DNA of 64,000 nucleotides from the IMG/VR virus record IMGVR_UViG_3300028629_000007; one strand, 5' to 3'. The notes below the pieces were generated by a model. That model saw only the letters and a program-made list of their open reading frames with translations, did no database searches and was not told the origin of the DNA. The position numbers and the translations under genes are program-made. Of this stretch, positions 2,541 through 60,500 are shown piece by piece. Origin of the DNA: a virus. Every line of letters begins with the position of its first letter. Position 1 is the first letter of the stretch.

Positions 2541-2700
2541 TATCAAGTAGCCAAAATTATGTGAACTACCCACCCGCTAAAGCGAGTGGGCTTCAGGTTT
2601 CATAGACACTTCTATTGAAGTCGCCTCCACCTGTTTTTGTTTAGAGTCCGATTTAATTCCTAAACCAGACTTTTGATTTAAACCTTGTTGTAATATATTA
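2541..2700 (-). ncRNA. Predicted omegaRNA (tnpB 3' end plus right-end hairpin) with guide ATAATTTTGGCTACTTGATA
   Basis: Known TnpB architecture; 5' boundary approximate. Confidence 0.6.
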
Positions 2701-3851
2701 AGACTTGCATTTAAGTCTCTATCTATTACTTTTCCACATTGACAAGTCCATTCACGGTCTTTTATATTTAATCCTTCATTAATCCAACCACAATGACTAC
2801 AAGTTTTAGAACTTGGGAAGAAGCGGTCTATTACGACCAATTCTCTTCCATACCATTCTGCCTTATAGTTTAGCTGTCGAACGAATTCACCCCAACCACA
2901 ATTGCCGATTGATTTAGCAAGATTGTGATTTGACATCATACCTTTAACATTCAAATCTTCAATACATATCACTTGGTTTTCGTGAATTAACTTATGTGAA
3001 AGTTTATGTAAGAAGTCTTGACGGTTATTATGTATTTTTTCGTGAACTAATGCTACTTGTTTTCTGTATTTTATTCTACTATTACTCTCCTTTTTCTTTT
3101 TACTTAATTGTCTTTGTGTGAACTTGAGTTTCTTTTCTAACTTATGATAATGTTTGGGATTATCAAACTTATCCCCATTACTACAAACTGCGAAATCTTT
3201 AATACCCAAATCTACTCCTATTGACTCATCATTCTTTGGAAGTTTTTGTATTTCTCCAACTTCACAAGTAATTGAAACAAAATACTTCCCCAATGGAGTT
3301 TTAGAAATCGTAATGAAGTTAATATCTCCTATTTCACGATGAGCATTTAACTCTATACCTTCATTAAACTTTGGAAAGTAAATCTTATTATCTTCAATTG
3401 AAATATGCTGTGGAACTCTAAAAGATTGTTTATCCCATTTACTTTTAAACTTTGGAAACTTACTTTGTTTACGGAAGAAACGATTATATGCTCCATCTAA
3501 ATCTCTTAAAGTATGTTGAAGTGTCTGTGAGTTTATTTCTTTTAACCAAGCAGTTTCTTCTACTTTCTTTAATTCAACCAATTCAGTTGCACAATCATAG
3601 TAATTTAGTGTCTTTTCATTCTTTAAGTATTCGTCTTTTCTTCTGTTTAGGAAGTGATTCCAAACAAATCTCTTACAACCAAAATGCTTGGCAAGTAGCA
3701 CTTCTTGGTCTTTCGTAGGTAGAAGTTGGAATTTAAACGATTTGAGCATATTACTATTATACCACCTTCTAAAGATATTTATACGAGATTTTTAGTTTTT
3801 GTAAAAGTTTCTTTCAAGTAACCACCACTCATTATAAATGGTGGGAATATG
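2561..3851 (-). mobile_element. IS200/IS605-family (IS1341-like) tnpB-only element
   Basis: Right end GAAGCCCACTCGCTTTAGCGGGTGGGTAGTTCAC at 2561; left end TTTAT|CATATTCCCACCA at 3851; no tnpA. Confidence 0.85.
2577..3749 (-). CDS. tnpB: RNA-guided endonuclease TnpB
   Basis: N-terminal HTH, RuvC motifs GVDLG / IEDL / DRDLNA, zinc finger CSHC..CQCG. Confidence 0.95.
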   Translation of the reverse strand: MLKSFKFQLLPTKDQEVLLAKHFGCKRFVWNHFLNRRKDEYLKNEKTLNYYDCATELVELKKVEETAWLKEINSQTLQHTLRDLDGAYNRFFRKQSKFPKFKSKWDKQSFRVPQHISIEDNKIYFPKFNEGIELNAHREIGDINFITISKTPLGKYFVSITCEVGEIQKLPKNDESIGVDLGIKDFAVCSNGDKFDNPKHYHKLEKKLKFTQRQLSKKKKESNSRIKYRKQVALVHEKIHNNRQDFLHKLSHKLIHENQVICIEDLNVKGMMSNHNLAKSIGNCGWGEFVRQLNYKAEWYGRELVVIDRFFPSSKTCSHCGWINEGLNIKDREWTCQCGKVIDRDLNASLNILQQGLNQKSGLGIKSDSKQKQVEATSIEVSMKPEAHSL

Positions 3852-16503: not shown

Positions 16504-17936
16504 CCACGAATCCCATAGTAATCGGGGAGGAACTTGTAGATATAGTCCTGGGTCTTCTGGTCAATGCCAAAGTGCTTGAAGAGCTTCTCATCGTCCCAAG
16601 ACTGAGTGAAGTCGAGCCAGGGGATGAGGGACATATTTCCAAGTGAAAGATCGCAGTTGTTTTTATATAAAGAAAGACAGAAGCGAGCGAAGAAAGTCTT
16701 GCAGTATTCGTGAAAGTTATCGCGTTCGTTTTCGTTAGGAAACTGGAAAGTTGGAATTGGATTACCAGCCCTTGTCAAGTCCAAAATACGAATACCTTTA
16801 CAAGATTCATCTTGTGTATTCATTGTATAAAAATCATCTTTCACAATGGTATTAGAAACGCTATTCGCGGACATGTTGACATTTCCGCGAATAGCAGCAA
16901 ACTGACAATGTTGCTTGTTTTTATCAGCTTTATCGGTTTTCCCCAAACTATAACTCCACACATCGTTTCCGCCGCTACAATCTTTCTTCATTTTTTCCAC
17001 GAAAGGCTTGACGATAGTTTCCCAATCAGCACCAAACTTAGTAATGTTCCAAACATCAGCATCGAACTTCTGGTCGAAATACTCAACAGAACACTTGCCG
17101 TTATAGTCTCGGTCATAACTGATAATAACACATGGAACATAAAGACCAACATCGAAAGTCTTATTCCCATTGAACAAAGTAGCCGACTTCAGCTTACCTT
17201 CCAGTAGCTTCTTGATCTTGATATAACGGCTATTTCCCTTGAGGTCGATCAAATAAGTCGATGGATGAACGATGAGAACATGCTTAGCGTCCAACTTCGT
17301 AATGAACAGATCAAGGAACTTGAGGTCGATGCCCTTCTTGTACGGAGGATTCCCAACCACAACATCAAACTTGATTCCACCCCAGTAGTCAAACTCCAGA
17401 GAATCGCCAACATGGTAGTTGAAGTCGTAGTCATTTTCGTTGCCCAAACGCTGCATGGTGAAGAACACATTCTTCGCCTGGAGGTCAACGAAGTACAACA
17501 TCTTCTCAATAATGTGCTTCTTGCGAGCAGCCTCGTTGGGAATCTGATCAGCCAGTGACACCATCAAACGAGCCAGCACTTCCACAAGGAAGTTACCACC
17601 GCCGACACTGTTGTCCAGCCACTTGTAATCCTTGTGCTTCCATACATCAGCAGGAAGCTTGTCAAGCATATCACGGATAAGCTGCTTAGGAGTGAAACAC
17701 TCGCCAAACTGCTTGCGGTACATGTCACCGGGGGTCAGAATCTTGCTTACATCTTCGCCACGCTTGCGTGCCATTGATACCTCTGCTATGGGGTTATTTA
17801 TCGTTCCATTAGACATTTTATCCAGTAATCGCAAAGTAGCAACAAGTGTTTTCTTGTTACCCATATCGTAGCGACCGATAATGTCATTGACAGTAGATCC
17901 AACGACGGTTTTGCTCAAAGATGACAGACTGGACAT
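16500..17936 (-). CDS. N6-adenine DNA methyltransferase (Eco57I/TaqI-like) with C-terminal specificity region
   Basis: GECFTP; WLDNSVGGGNF; VVGNPPY; start reassigned after promoter and AGGAAAG RBS. Confidence 0.9.
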   Translation of the reverse strand: MSSLSSLSKTVVGSTVNDIIGRYDMGNKKTLVATLRLLDKMSNGTINNPIAEVSMARKRGEDVSKILTPGDMYRKQFGECFTPKQLIRDMLDKLPADVWKHKDYKWLDNSVGGGNFLVEVLARLMVSLADQIPNEAARKKHIIEKMLYFVDLQAKNVFFTMQRLGNENDYDFNYHVGDSLEFDYWGGIKFDVVVGNPPYKKGIDLKFLDLFITKLDAKHVLIVHPSTYLIDLKGNSRYIKIKKLLEGKLKSATLFNGNKTFDVGLYVPCVIISYDRDYNGKCSVEYFDQKFDADVWNITKFGADWETIVKPFVEKMKKDCSGGNDVWSYSLGKTDKADKNKQHCQFAAIRGNVNMSANSVSNTIVKDDFYTMNTQDESCKGIRILDLTRAGNPIPTFQFPNENERDNFHEYCKTFFARFCLSLYKNNCDLSLGNMSLIPWLDFTQSWDDEKLFKHFGIDQKTQDYIYKFLPDYYGIRG

Positions 17937-43770: not shown

Positions 43771-45378
43771 TTACTGCTTCTGCTCGTACATCTTTGACAT
43801 TTGAGCAGCGTAACGAATCACCCCATCAGACCAGCCTCCTAGTATGAAGGTTCGGTCATAGTTCTCCGGAACCAGCGTATCAGTGTACGAAGCAACCTGA
43901 ACCAAATAAACCATGACCTTCGGGTTGATCTTGCGATACTCCTTGATCAGCTTAGGAACGTGGATATGGTTACTTCCCTTCCAACCATATTCCTTCATAT
44001 ACTGACGAGAACATGCTTCAGTTCCGTACAAGCCACCGTGTCCAGCCTGCATGTCGCTGTAGATGAAGATATGATCCCAATGCTCCTTCTCCTTGATTGC
44101 CTTGTCGAAGAACAACCAGATTCCGTTCTCGGTGCTTCCACCGATCCCATCACCAAGGTTGTTAGCCTTCTTCAAGTCATCGAAGATGGATGAAGACTTG
44201 CGAACCGCGAAGGTTTCAAGCTTGTCACCGAAGACACCAACATGTCCGTTCTCGGCGCACTTTGCAGTGACAACTGCGGTAAGGTTGGCAATCTCGGATA
44301 CCTTGACACTACCATAGGCAGAAGTCATGGTTCCATGAGCAGATCCGGAGTTGTCACAGAGCGACATGACATTACCCTTGAACTGCGGAAGGTTCTTGAG
44401 AGAAATCTTCATGCAGTCTTCAACGGCATCCATGACAGATGACTTACCCTGCGATTCGACTGCCTTGAAGGCACTCCAGTAACGGAACGGAAGCTGCTTT
44501 CCAGTCTCGGCAGTTGCAACAAGCTTATCCAAGTAGACACTGGTATCTACACCCTTCTCTTGGAAGTTACGCAAGTTGCGAAGCAGAGCCATGTGACCCA
44601 TGACTTCGACAGCCTTGGTCCAAGTCTCCTTGGTCGATCCCTCCTTGGAGATGATCGCTTCCCAAGTCTCTCCACTGGACTTCAACTCGCCCTTGGCGAG
44701 CTTACCGATAGCATCAGACTTTGGGTGACAGATGTTCATGACATCGACGGTCTTTACTTGATGTCCCTCAAGACGATACTTCGCAAGCGAGTACTCACTG
44801 CAAGCGGAGAGCGCCTTTGCCCAAGCCTTCTTCAAGGAGTTAGGAATTGGCTTACCAAATGCGGACTTCTGGTAGGCAAGTCCCGTTGCTGGCTCGTCTG
44901 CACGCTTGATGATTTCTGGAGCATACTTCTGAACCAATCCAAGTCCCTTAGCAGACTTGTGGTTAGCAGCACGAACGAGAATGACCTGTGGAGTAACACG
45001 GATGTTGTCCTCGTTACGAAGAGCAACAGCGACCTTGAGAGTCTCTTCGACATTGAACGCAAGAGCCTCGTCAATCGTCTTCTCCATGATTTCCTTCGGA
45101 GACATACCACGCCACTCCTGCGGGTCGATAGCGTCGAGTACGCTACGAAGCTCCTTCACATCGGCATCGGAGAGGCGATAGTCAGGGGCGTGACGAACCT
45201 TACGCTTGTCATCGGCGTCTCGGTTATAGTATTGGGGCTCACCGAAAAAGCACGACGAAGCGGCTATACGGAGCTTGTTAAGTGGGTTCTTAATATCCCA
45301 ACTGGTCCCACCCATATAATTGAGATGAGAGTCCTTGGTGATGTCAACTGGAATCTTCTTTGGGTTAATGCAATTCAT
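43771..45378 (-). CDS. TROVE-domain RNA-binding protein (Ro60/Rsr-like) with vWA domain
   Basis: LRIAASSCFFGEPQYY; YSLAKY; MALLRNLRN; CDNSGS; IYSDMQ. Confidence 0.92.
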   Translation of the reverse strand: MNCINPKKIPVDITKDSHLNYMGGTSWDIKNPLNKLRIAASSCFFGEPQYYNRDADDKRKVRHAPDYRLSDADVKELRSVLDAIDPQEWRGMSPKEIMEKTIDEALAFNVEETLKVAVALRNEDNIRVTPQVILVRAANHKSAKGLGLVQKYAPEIIKRADEPATGLAYQKSAFGKPIPNSLKKAWAKALSACSEYSLAKYRLEGHQVKTVDVMNICHPKSDAIGKLAKGELKSSGETWEAIISKEGSTKETWTKAVEVMGHMALLRNLRNFQEKGVDTSVYLDKLVATAETGKQLPFRYWSAFKAVESQGKSSVMDAVEDCMKISLKNLPQFKGNVMSLCDNSGSAHGTMTSAYGSVKVSEIANLTAVVTAKCAENGHVGVFGDKLETFAVRKSSSIFDDLKKANNLGDGIGGSTENGIWLFFDKAIKEKEHWDHIFIYSDMQAGHGGLYGTEACSRQYMKEYGWKGSNHIHVPKLIKEYRKINPKVMVYLVQVASYTDTLVPENYDRTFILGGWSDGVIRYAAQMSKMYEQKQ

Positions 45379-54298: not shown

Positions 54299-55358
54299 AT
54301 TTGCGTCTTATACCCTAAAGAAACATCTTTCGCCTTTAGATATAATACACATAATGGATTTCTAATAAACATATTTCGTGCATAAAAGTATCTTGGAGGC
54401 GATGCCGTATCACCACTAAACGGAGAGCGCCAATACTTCTGCAATCTAAGCATCTATTATGACCCAATATACTTATTCTACACTATTGTTATGTAAAGTC
54501 AATCGGAGAAGTTCATATCAGTTTGCTTTAGAAATAGTTTCATAGTAAATTTTCCTCTGCACTTTATTTCGTCTTGAAGTTTCTTTTTTCTTGCCTTGAG
54601 GCTACTGAAGCAGTATTTTCTTCCAATGTTAATTGGGGACCAAATATACTGATGCATAATAGAATAATCAAGAAAAGTTTCTCTTGCTAATGTAACGCTT
54701 CCACCACGAGAGTCCAAATGTGATTTTGGATGGGATGTTTGGGAGTCAATGGTAATACTACTACCATAAACAAAAGTTACTAAAAAAATATATGATTGAG
54801 CGTTGTAGCTTGTCTTATGATATTTCATAATATTCCTCGTATTCCACCCATTCTTTGACTTCCCCAATTCTTCCAACCAACTATAAGCTCCTTCTTTCTG
54901 TCCTTGAGAGTTCTCATATTGCATGGAGGTTCTTCGTAGCAACACCACCAACCAAATCCAAATGTTCTTCCAGTAAACACCATACAACATAACCTCGGTT
55001 CTGCTACGAAATGTCTTTTTCTGGGTATGTAAAATGGATATACCCAACGGTTTCTCTTATGATACTTCATGGTATTATATTCATCCTCATCTGCTGATTA
55101 GTTTTCTTATATTTCACGAGTATCAAATCCTACCATAAGGTTGTGTCCATTGGTCTTCCACGCTATCTTCAGGTCTTTTTTATTACTACGCCATATTTCA
55201 ATAAAGCTCCATTCATGCCACCCATTGAAACAATTTCTATCATCCGTGTCAAAGAAACCCGAACGACGAAATACAATTACATTGTAATATTCACTAGAAT
55301 ATGATATTTGTAATTTCTGCTTCTTCATCTTCATAAGAGGCTATTCCCATATCGCATC

Positions 55359-55761
55359 GTGAATACACCCACCCCCTAAAGGGAGTGGGCTTCTAGGTGG
55401 AGTTTCAACCACCAAAGATTATATACCTAATCTTGTCTGTTCTGTTTATGTTAAGTTTCTTTCTACTTTAAGTAGTTGTATATTATAGAGTTATAATTTC
55501 ACACTCATCTTACTTAACGAAATATACAATATATTTGTTTTAACTGTATATAGTTTTACGAGTAGGTCAGTCACTTCCTAACCAGTTATTGGACTTATTG
55601 ACTTTGCCATTAACCTGTAGTATTGTTTCCTACTCAACCTGTCTACATTGTTTTTCAAAGAACTAAGTTAATTGTAACTTGTTATTTTAGAAAGTCAACC
55701 ATCAAGTTACCCACCATTCATCCCATCGGCTAAAGCCAATGGGTTTTCTGGTGGAACGATG
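55359..55761 (-). mobile_element. Non-autonomous IS200/IS605 derivative (MITE-like, no tnpA or tnpB)
   Basis: LE TTTAT|CATCGTTCCACCAGAAAACCCATTGGCTTTAGCCGATGGG; RE GAAGCCCACTCCCTTTAGGGGGTGGGTGTATTCAC; excision restores the host ORF. Confidence 0.9.
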
Positions 55762-55915
55762 ATAAACTTTCCCCACTCTCGGCGTATATAACGCTTCTCT
55801 TCAGTAATCTTTTTTTGACTATCTCTGAATCTAAAGCTAATAATAACTGATATTTTACCAAGATCAAATCCACTTCCGTTGACTCGTATCATGCCAAACC
55901 GTAACTTTTCTACCT

Positions 55916-56098
55916 TCATTGTAATATCTTTTCCAATATTTTGACAGCATCATCAAACGCAATATCATCATGCTCCCTATGTGAATGTATCAATCTACGG
56001 ATTATCTCAAGATACTGAGAGTTCCTGGCACGAAGTCTTTTGACTAGGCGCGATTGCTCTATCTGGTTCTCCAGACTACAGGGGTAGCGAGTCTTCAT
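55916..56098 (-). CDS. Small coiled-coil hypothetical protein
   Basis: ATGA overlap. Confidence 0.65.
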   Translation of the reverse strand: MKTRYPCSLENQIEQSRLVKRLRARNSQYLEIIRRLIHSHREHDDIAFDDAVKILEKILQ

Positions 56099-57527: not shown

Positions 57528-60500
57528 AATACTTCCTATTCCAGTTTACGCCTTTCCAACGAGAACGCAAGATGCGTTTTACCTTGAATGGTGTGAGAGC
57601 AAAAAATCCTCTTACAATGTATCTTGCCTTACATATTGTGACGAATGTTTCTCTGGCGTCAATATAATACATTTGCTTATGTCTACCACAATCTTCATGA
57701 ACACGAAACCTATGTATCTTTTCATACTTCATCGTAAACCCACTCTATGTCTTTCCACTTCTGACGCAATATCCATTTTATTTTTTGTGTTTTTGTATGT
57801 GGACGAAATTTTCTTTTCCTATGTAATCCTTGAATCGTCAGTGCGTGGTCATCGAAGAATGTATCACGAAAGACGATAAAGATACCGACTGCTTCCATGT
57901 CATTCATGATTATTTTATTAGTCTTCATGGCTCTTCTCCATTCCAGTTACATGACCCATCATTGAAATCTAGTCTGTACATATCTTTCCAGTAGCTATAA
58001 GTATCTCTCTTGCGATTAAATGGTTTGTATTTGAAGTGATAAACAGCACTAAAAGATTCTATTTGCTCGTATTCCCATTTGATGGACATGCTTCTACCGT
58101 AAGTGAATACATTACGCATCTCAAAAGTAACCATCATGTTTTCTGAATCGTTGGTCTTCTTGAACTTCATTCTTCTCCCGTTCCCCATCGTCTATATCTT
58201 ATGAACGTCTTTTTCCACATATTCTTCAACAGACGCTTTCTTTGCTGGACGGGTGGAGTACTGAGGTTGAAGGTTCCAAAAGCTGCCCAGCCAATGTGCC
58301 AGTTACGACTGCCAGTAAAAACCTTACGAAAATACATTTCATGCACCTTGAATTTATATTTTTTCATTCTTCACCACCATTCCACCACATGTATGACAAA
58401 TTATAAGCAGATGAAGGATGTGTGAAGAATTTCTTCCATTTATTCTTCATGTGTCTTTTTCTGTTTGCATCATATCTCATCATAAACCGCTGAAACGGGA
58501 TAGACGGACCCCATTCAAACCATATATTATTTGGGAACATCATACCGAAGTTTCTACACTTACTACGACTGGCTGTAATAGGCATGAAGATCTTACGGTA
58601 GAATATACGATTCCTATCTAATGCTTTACATATCTTCATTCGTCACACCCCCAGCAGTTCAGACTCTTCCATTCATTCACTAAGTCTCTTTTTATGTTTA
58701 AATGTGAATAAAACTTACGATTCCCAAAAGTATAATATAACTGGGAACTGATACTTATCTGATTAGCACCCGAGACATCATAATACGATGAATAATAACC
58801 TATGAAAGCAAATCGACTAATATAGAATCCCTTTCTTGTCTTCCATGGTTTCTTCATATATTCTTCTCGCTTTCGTCCCATTTGAACATAATATGCCTAC
58901 CATACACCTTCCACTTAATACGACACATCTTCTGTGGGCAATGGACTCTTTCATAATCATACTTACCATTTTTATATATAGTCAAAATCTCAAATGTTTG
59001 AATGCGCTTAATGCTCTTCAGTCCAAGAAACCCCACAATAACAACATAGTATATGTCTCGACTACCATCAAGGAAACTCCTATGCTTCTTGTATAGCTTA
59101 TAACCCATAATGTTATGATACTTCTATTGTGTTATAAGTCAAATTGTTAGTCGTACATACCTTCTATCATCCTCCTGCCTTCTGTCTTATATGCTCTAAT
59201 GGCACATCGTCGCATCTTTATGGCGTGATGTGACCATTTATGCATTGACCATGTATTATAGGGAACCAAATAGAAAGAACTACGCGAATGGTGGTCTAAT
59301 GACTTACAATAGTACACAATGATATGTGGAGCATCTTCCACATTGCCCTTACGAACACGTATCTTACTCATCTAGGTCGTTCCATGTTTTTCTCCAGTAT
59401 CCCTTATAGCAGCACATGTAATTTTTCCTTACTTGAGACATACCAAACATAGATTCACCATTACCATAGGACCAAGAAAGATTGAACATCCCCAAATTCC
59501 TAAAATGATACACCAGACCATTAGCCAAGTATCTCTTATTACATTCACATCGACGCATAATCTTCTCCGAATACTTCATACGATAGACATCTCCAGCCAC
59601 ATTTATAGACTTTCAAGGCTCTTTTACGAAACCTCAAGTAACCATACTCAAACTCAGCATATGATACACGATTACCTGTTTCCCCAACAAACTCTTTATT
59701 ATCTTTATTCCACTTGACAGACCATCCATGGCTGATGATATGTGGAATCGCCTTTGAGGACCATAGCAACTCCTTGGCTTTATATACTTTCAGCTTACTC
59801 ATGATAGTCCCATTTCATGAGCTTGTAGCATAGAATACAATTCTTTTTTTCTTTTCTTATTCGGTTGAAGTCCCAATCAAGAAAGCCAACCTCTCGTCCA
59901 AGAATGTATCTCGGGCGGTCACATTCCAAGTTATTATACTTGTCACCCCATCTCCATGGACTGACCTTATGGATCTTCATTCATCACCCCTTACCCAATC
60001 ATTATACTCTCTTCTTTCACTATAGCAACTCTTCCAGTCATCTATAATTCTTCTCTTCGTGTTCATGATTCGCTTTCCCAGCATGTTACGAAAGCGTATA
60101 GGAACAAATTGTGTACCGCATTTGGTTCGATGGCAACCACGGAACATTCCCCGATACTCTACATAGTATCCCCAGCCCTGAGAAGGTTTGTTATACTTCA
60201 TCGACACCACCCCAAGAACTTACCCTGTTAGCAAACATACTCTTCCAGTCATCTCTTAGGTTTCTTTTCATATTTATTGGAATGTCTCTCATATAGAGGC
60301 TTTCTCTACAAACTTGAACTTCCCACACTTCTTTGAATTGAAAGACGCTTCGACTACAGAACATGTCAACGCCATGCTCTTTGTTTTTCTTATACTTCAT
60401 CTTCACCCCTCCACTTGCACAGATGGTCCCTATATATCAACTTCCATTCTCTTTTCAAGCGTCTCTTGGGATTGACAAATCCCCTGGCTCGTCTAAACAG

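Follow-up and report, generated by a model that had tools for sequence, protein, structure and literature searches.

A stand-alone omegaRNA of compact type is supported by sequence comparisons in the last 76 nt of a 403-bp insertion element carried by a large phage-like genome from activated sludge. The element itself is a mobile, protein-free IS200/IS605 derivative (PATE), as shown by its exact ends, its insertion at TTTAT and its occurrence at several sites, and its identity as a PATE with a compact omegaRNA scaffold is highly probable. The explanation that we favour with fair confidence is a non-autonomous mini-element encoding a stand-alone compact TnpB omegaRNA whose partner would act in trans. 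The window, by which we mean the whole 64,000-nucleotide stretch analysed, is a part of that phage-like genome; sister contigs added 98 kb at one end and at least 8 kb at the other, giving a phage genome of at least 170 kb. The features discussed below are collected in Table 1.

Table 1. Positions, strand and basis of the features described, in window coordinates
Feature	Position	Strand	Remarks
Resident tnpB element (ORF 3749-2577) with long ISDra2-type omegaRNA; left-end hairpin missing	2561-3851	-	probably not the cognate nuclease
Predicted guide (host flank, 20 nt)	55339-55358	-	TTTAT plus flank corresponds to the empty allele
Protein-free IS200/IS605 element (PATE), 403 bp	55359-55761	-	TTTAT outside the left end, TTCAC at the right end; empty allele, copies
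Right-end hairpin (55389-55368), pseudoknot 3' strand TATTC (55365-55361), terminus TTCAC	55359-55389	-	
Putative omegaRNA second hairpin GGTGG/CCACC, followed by conserved linker TAGAAG (55395-55390)	55396-55413	-	
Putative omegaRNA stem 1, 7 bp, loop GGTATA; pseudoknot 5' strand (55426-55422)	55415-55434	-	
AT-rich 5' leader, not tnpB-derived	55435-55652	-	91-96% conserved in homologue; no significant folding
boxA-like antitermination motif GTTCTTTGAAA, the sole one in the 64-kb window	55653-55663	-	consensus match; putative function
Sigma70-type promoter, -35 TTGACT, 16 nt, -10 TACAAT; predicted start near 55664	55671-55698	-	putative function
Left end with subterminal hairpin (55743-55722)	55707-55761	-	56 of its first 58 nt match the L089 tnpB element at the left end
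TTTAT target motif, adjoining the left end outside	55762-55766	-	TnpA insertion motif and predicted TnpB TAM; empty-site joint in run X15
5' part of interrupted small host ORF	55762-55919	-	rejoined empty site gives a 62-aa ORF

Insertion, boundaries and dispersed copies

The element sits within an array of small genes and on the same strand as they do. A contig from a related phage (run X15) joined position 55358 to 55762, omitting exactly the 403 bp, and this empty-site comparison placed the insertion directly 3' of TTTAT, target duplication being absent. The rejoined flanks read an ORF whose stop codon overlaps the next ATG (55334). Both ends of the element carry subterminal hairpins, and it has no protein-coding gene; the absence of interior ORFs stated in the original prediction was confirmed, none exceeding 36 aa. 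An IStron (group I intron plus IS605) was ruled out by the lack of any Rfam match to the group I intron core up to E 10. The predicted guide (55358-55339) presented no other match in the 64-kb window at three or fewer mismatches, and a TTAT-adjacent match to its 12-nt seed, with two mismatches, near 58480 was at chance level.

Another metagenome supplied a copy with 84.5% identity, located in a T4-like viral contig. Homologues (84% identical) occupied five other sites and had a different guide flank at each: the contigs of that metagenome (Ga0209172) displayed five different right flanks after TTCAC, the total being six when the copy of the window is included, so the variable guide lies directly outside the right end. 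Three further left ends of copies were each located behind TTTAT, and in run X20 the 3' half of the element was identical and followed by yet another flank. No match came from a BLAST search of annotated phages and plasmids with the element as query, from viral contigs scanned for patterns of its interior and left end, or from GTDB genomes scanned for two patterns; 16-mer matches to the element were mostly due to chance. Run X23 yielded contigs on no other part of the 4.5 kb compared and run X19 none on the element, and these absences were not used as evidence.

Several minor features of the copies were also recorded. In the X20 contig (matching 55358-55518 and 55714-55763 of the window), the identical 3' half ended 58 nt before a second element with the same left end, another interior and again the promoter-like word TTGACT. 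The leader of one homologue (L022, 5595-5650) contained a 27-nt tandem duplication, either real or an assembly artefact. The copies of L057, L060, and L061 faced a convergent host gene, to whose 3' end the guide flank was antisense. Other protein-free derivatives were present in L077 (2219-2513), L083, L080, L082, and L100; those of L077 and L083 were plain internal deletions, in which about 190 nt from the 3' part of the tnpB coding region remained and the promoter-boxA leader was absent.

Folding of the interior and the 76-nt scaffold

The original prediction had regarded the interior (55339-55700) as a structured candidate omegaRNA, on the basis of five complementary pairs leading into the right-end hairpin and a 20-nt flank (55358-55339), all of which were found on the minus strand where it had placed them. 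Three of these helices were sustained by folding, with pair probabilities of 0.71-0.98 for AAGATTA/TAATCTT, about 1.0 for GGTGG/CCACC and 0.77-0.95 for CTACTT/AAGTAG, the latter as five pairs only (CTACT/AGTAG) because the full helix would leave a 1-nt loop. The two others, long-range GAGTAGG/CCTACTC (0.27) and AGTCA/TGACT (0.03), were unsupported, the leader folding no better than shuffled sequences. The whole element, both end hairpins included, folded clearly better than shuffles (z -5.3), whereas the interior alone (55435-55664) reached z -1.4 (p about 0.1) and that of the homologue z -0.8. Complementary words within 55395-55700 were at chance level for 5 bp (94 vs. 79 expected, p 0.14) and borderline for 7 bp (13 vs. 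6 expected, p 0.05). A broadly structured interior is therefore a weak claim, and the long-range helices lie outside the scaffold, so that the idea of an omegaRNA extending across the interior had to be reduced to the last 76 nt (55434-55359), comprising stem 1, a hairpin, the right-end hairpin and a pseudoknot. For these nucleotides the stand-alone omegaRNA found support in a covarying TnpB-linked family.

This family was obtained by gathering short-tailed TnpBs by protein homology, which gave 28 TnpB-linked loci for the analysis of covariation. These loci present a 7-bp stem with a six-base loop starting with GG and a 5-bp pseudoknot in which the loop pairs with the last bases; in stem 1 and the pseudoknot 99% of the cells were paired, with 126 double changes, exceeding all 500 shuffles and all slid controls. 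The 7-bp stem 1, the second hairpin, TAGAAG and the right-end hairpin of the element are all in register with this compact type. A covariance model (R1) was built from TnpB-linked loci of the short-tailed clade only, leaving the element out of training; it scored the element at 51.8 bits over the whole model (all 79 positions) and its homologues at 47-57 bits, in contrast with 17.8 bits, from the end hairpin only, for the end of the resident tnpB. A DNA profile from 410 nt of compact gene ends matched the element exactly from 55433 to 55359 (E 2e-7) and nowhere upstream. In another phage, the L057 contig carries a copy of the element together with a tnpB whose product has a short C-terminal tail; only a 34-aa fragment of this tnpB, its 3' end, is present, at the contig end, and its RNA end is laid out as the last 76 nt of the element. 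L088, a TnpB fragment in the L022 record, was of non-compact type and was left out of the counts. A second, weaker match to the compact scaffold (30.7 bits), possibly a stand-alone copy, occurred in L089 at 17719-17777, 6.5 kb from tnpB.

The scaffold could be a passenger without guiding role in an element spread by TnpA alone, its RNA shape being kept by ancestry and by the need for DNA hairpins. The pseudoknot of the element (stem 1 loop with the 3' end) has four of its five pairs, position 2 being a U.U mismatch fixed in every element copy and paired in 28/28 TnpB-linked loci, and no cognate nuclease was found in about 120 kb of phage; moreover, with a divergence of only 16% among homologues, a recent origin may account for the conservation. 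Against such a passenger, the scaffold is identical to that of the homologue at 75 of 76 positions as compared to 12 changes in 41 in the promoter zone, and comparison with the nearest tnpB-linked scaffold (L089) revealed two compensated pairs in stem 1 and one in the pseudoknot, the sequence of the second hairpin also differing. In addition, a promoter and boxA are directed into the scaffold. Taking both sides together, we consider the passenger reading improbable, and an ability of the scaffold to guide a compact-clade TnpB slightly favoured.

Promoter, boxA-like motif and leader

The predicted promoter lies inside the left end and points at the scaffold, with the boxA-like motif right behind it. 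The promoter zone was the most diverged part between copies (71% vs. 91-100% elsewhere), the hexamers being kept; the L059 copy displayed TTGACT together with TATAAT. By sequence match only, the boxA-like motif fits the consensus that bioRxiv 10.64898/2026.07.09.737519 gives for the leaders of rRNA and CRISPR. Contigs from an independent metatranscriptome covered 55394-55681 and 55145-55350 with at least 99% identity, the edge of one of them being 17 nt upstream of the predicted start; since such contigs are strandless and DNA is a possible source, they are a weak hint of expression only. The presence of promoter and boxA on an element containing only a guide suggests selection for guide expression and not mere decay of a tnpB element.

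Promoter and boxA might instead be kept mainly for the host, as a portable promoter restoring transcription of downstream genes after the break of a translationally coupled operon. The overlap between the stop of the interrupted ORF and the next start fits this view, as do the lack of a terminator past the right end of the element and the coverage of the downstream gene by an RNA-library contig. However, the downstream gene is convergent in 3/6 copies, where rescue by the promoter of the element would be impossible, and a portable promoter is compatible with the guide role and does not exclude it. As the main reason for keeping these signals, we judge it very unlikely.

The leader ahead of the scaffold might likewise be a separate cargo, a non-coding RNA with a function of its own. 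Conservation was 96% in its first 104 nt as compared to 71% in the promoter zone next to it (p 5e-5), and the leader does not derive from tnpB: in spite of words resembling AKSIS and PTRKT, decayed tnpB was rejected as its source, the similarity being no better than with shuffles as either protein or DNA. The same 104 nt were not more conserved than the remaining leader, though (p 0.16), no meaningful match between the element and Rfam was obtained, and the leader folded no better than shuffles, its two versions folding differently. Furthermore, the leader was seen inside the element only, and its two sequences offer no compensatory change. A cargo RNA thus has little probability, comparable to that of the portable promoter. 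Under the favoured reading of a guide transcript, the 230-nt leader would not need to hinder loading, since TnpBs shorten their RNA at the 5' end (PMC10278001).

Candidate nucleases and relation to known systems

The original prediction had proposed the element RNA as a second guide for the TnpB of the window. That both share a target motif was corroborated, TTTAT being adjacent to the element (55766-55762) and to the resident tnpB (3856-3852), and so was the resemblance of the terminal 35 nt or so at the right end; the view that likeness to the tnpB locus stopped there was not, as the left ends are also homologous. The resident left end (3851-3810, minus strand) lacks the subterminal hairpin present in a relative with an 88% identical TnpB (L071), and consequently the resident element is probably immobilised, its gene and omegaRNA being intact.

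Several data agree with a second guide for the resident protein: the common TTTAT, the TTCAC end, the near-identical right-end hairpin, intact catalytic motifs (RuvC D-E-D), a stem 1 loop able to pair with the 3' end in both scaffold types, and its status as the sole TnpB in about 120 kb of phage. Nevertheless, GGAG and GAA motifs are present in a stem 2/3 domain of the resident scaffold, and when the element was examined as a long ISDra2-like omegaRNA, stem 1 and the end hairpin were not separated by such a domain; the corresponding stems 2 and 3a of ISDra2 make extensive contacts with the RuvC domain (PMC10097598). The long-type model (R2) gave 49.3 bits for the resident scaffold and 16.2 bits, from the end hairpin only, for the element. 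The reciprocal models thus share nothing but the end hairpin, which supports a stand-alone omegaRNA and makes a second guide for the resident TnpB unlikely. The protein itself belongs to another, long-scaffold clade: in a tree of 90 TnpBs, 33/34 compact-scaffold proteins formed one supported group with the resident protein outside (only this separation was used, the label "long" being crude beyond the clade of the window), and the resident protein was 35% identical to the compact-type P0031 and nearer to ISDra2 (263 vs. 162 bits). The TnpB at 3749-2577 is therefore probably not the partner, and we give its use of the element RNA a low probability.

The partner is probably a TnpB of P0031 type. 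The P0031 locus (L089, in GCA_902729835.1) combines TTTAT, a compact scaffold and a left end identical to that of the element at 56 of the first 58 nt, and its P0031-type element is the likely parent. About 120 kb of the phage (at least 170 kb) yielded neither a compact-clade TnpB nor a TnpA; this portion included a walk through sister contigs covering about 48 kb to the left and 8 kb to the right of the window; no second TnpB, TnpA or scaffold appeared in these two extensions. Among relatives, TnpA was present in L105, with a similar left end, and in L078. From the sequences compared, the common motif and ends appear to reflect one TnpA family, which carries either kind of tnpB. The same families of left ends were observed with long-scaffold or compact-scaffold tnpB in L071, L073, L079, L089, and L185. 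Such combinations suggest that tnpB/omegaRNA modules have been exchanged between elements with common ends.

According to the mechanism that we propose, the element would be moved by a TnpA made elsewhere, and its own promoter and boxA would produce an RNA that is not translated and that extends into the flank. Acting in trans, a TnpB of the compact clade (P0031 type) could then trim the 5' leader and load scaffold plus flank. The loaded TnpB would cut TTTAT plus flank, that is, the element-free allele generated by excision or brought by a co-infecting relative such as the X15 phage, and repair from the occupied copy would restore or spread the element, following the published retention model (bioRxiv 10.1101/2023.03.14.532601). 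A bolder extension, which we advance as doubtful, is that large phages use the element as a purpose-built guide cassette: captured promoter, boxA and a functional leader would feed the 76-nt scaffold, and the copies, scattered over T4-like contigs with no fewer than five flanks in a single metagenome, would constitute a guide library for one compact-clade TnpB, driving elements into co-infecting relatives or attacking them, and being orthogonal to a second TnpB system with the same motif.

PATEs with omegaRNAs and standalone omegaRNAs are already known, so the kind of element found here is only modestly surprising. In Geobacillus stearothermophilus, PATEs often encode omegaRNAs that need the TnpB of other elements in trans (Meers et al., bioRxiv 10.1101/2023.03.14.532601). 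The element resembles them in being protein-free with hairpin ends, and differs in its location in a phage, its promoter, boxA-like motif and foreign leader, the absence of a tnpB remnant and a scaffold unlike that of the co-resident TnpB. Standalone omegaRNAs (Altae-Tran et al. 2021, summarised in PMC10691335) have a compatible effector in the same genome and shown activity in trans; they are likewise mobilised without effector or transposase and provide extra guides in trans, whereas for the element no compatible effector turned up in the roughly 120 kb covered of a genome of at least 170 kb. The ISDra2 TnpB omegaRNA (PMC10097598; PDB 8H1J), in which the stem 1 loop pairs with the last scaffold bases, the right-end hairpin is terminal and the guide lies outside, shares this stem 1, right-end hairpin and external guide with the element, whose stem 1 loop forms four of the five pseudoknot pairs of the compact type and which has 76 nt instead of 116 and one short hairpin in place of stems 2/3; the ISDra2-like form in the window is that of its own tnpB. 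The short-tailed TnpB elements of large phages (P0031 in L089; L078, L081), similar in left end (56/58), TTTAT and compact scaffold, encode TnpB and take their RNA from the 3' terminus of the gene, in contrast with the gene-free element; no experimental study of this clade was found in the literature. CRISPR leaders with boxA (Stringer et al. 2020, as cited in bioRxiv 10.64898/2026.07.09.737519) also place it just behind the promoter of an untranslated guide transcript, that of the element being a single guide and mobile; in a literature search of incomplete coverage, no report of boxA in an omegaRNA cassette was found. What sets our case apart is a scaffold of minimal size that does not match the co-resident TnpB, preceded by a foreign leader and by a promoter and boxA dedicated to it.

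A common target motif and end hairpin need not mean nuclease compatibility, and the window offers a ready orthogonality test of two types of TnpB scaffold. The 76-nt scaffold, at the lower limit of the lengths reported for omegaRNAs (79-466 nt when processed; PMC10278001), would be a natural one freed from coding overlap, with a P0031-type candidate nuclease and TTTAT as predicted TAM, and could be useful for compact editors. Regarding other contents of this phage, a protein matching Acb1 (PF23474), an anti-CBASS family, was encoded to the left of the window, at a distance of about 16 kb (L190, 17963-18508). A TROVE-domain protein (Ro60-like RNA-binding family) was located at 43771-45378 of the window, for which Rfam found no partner RNA.
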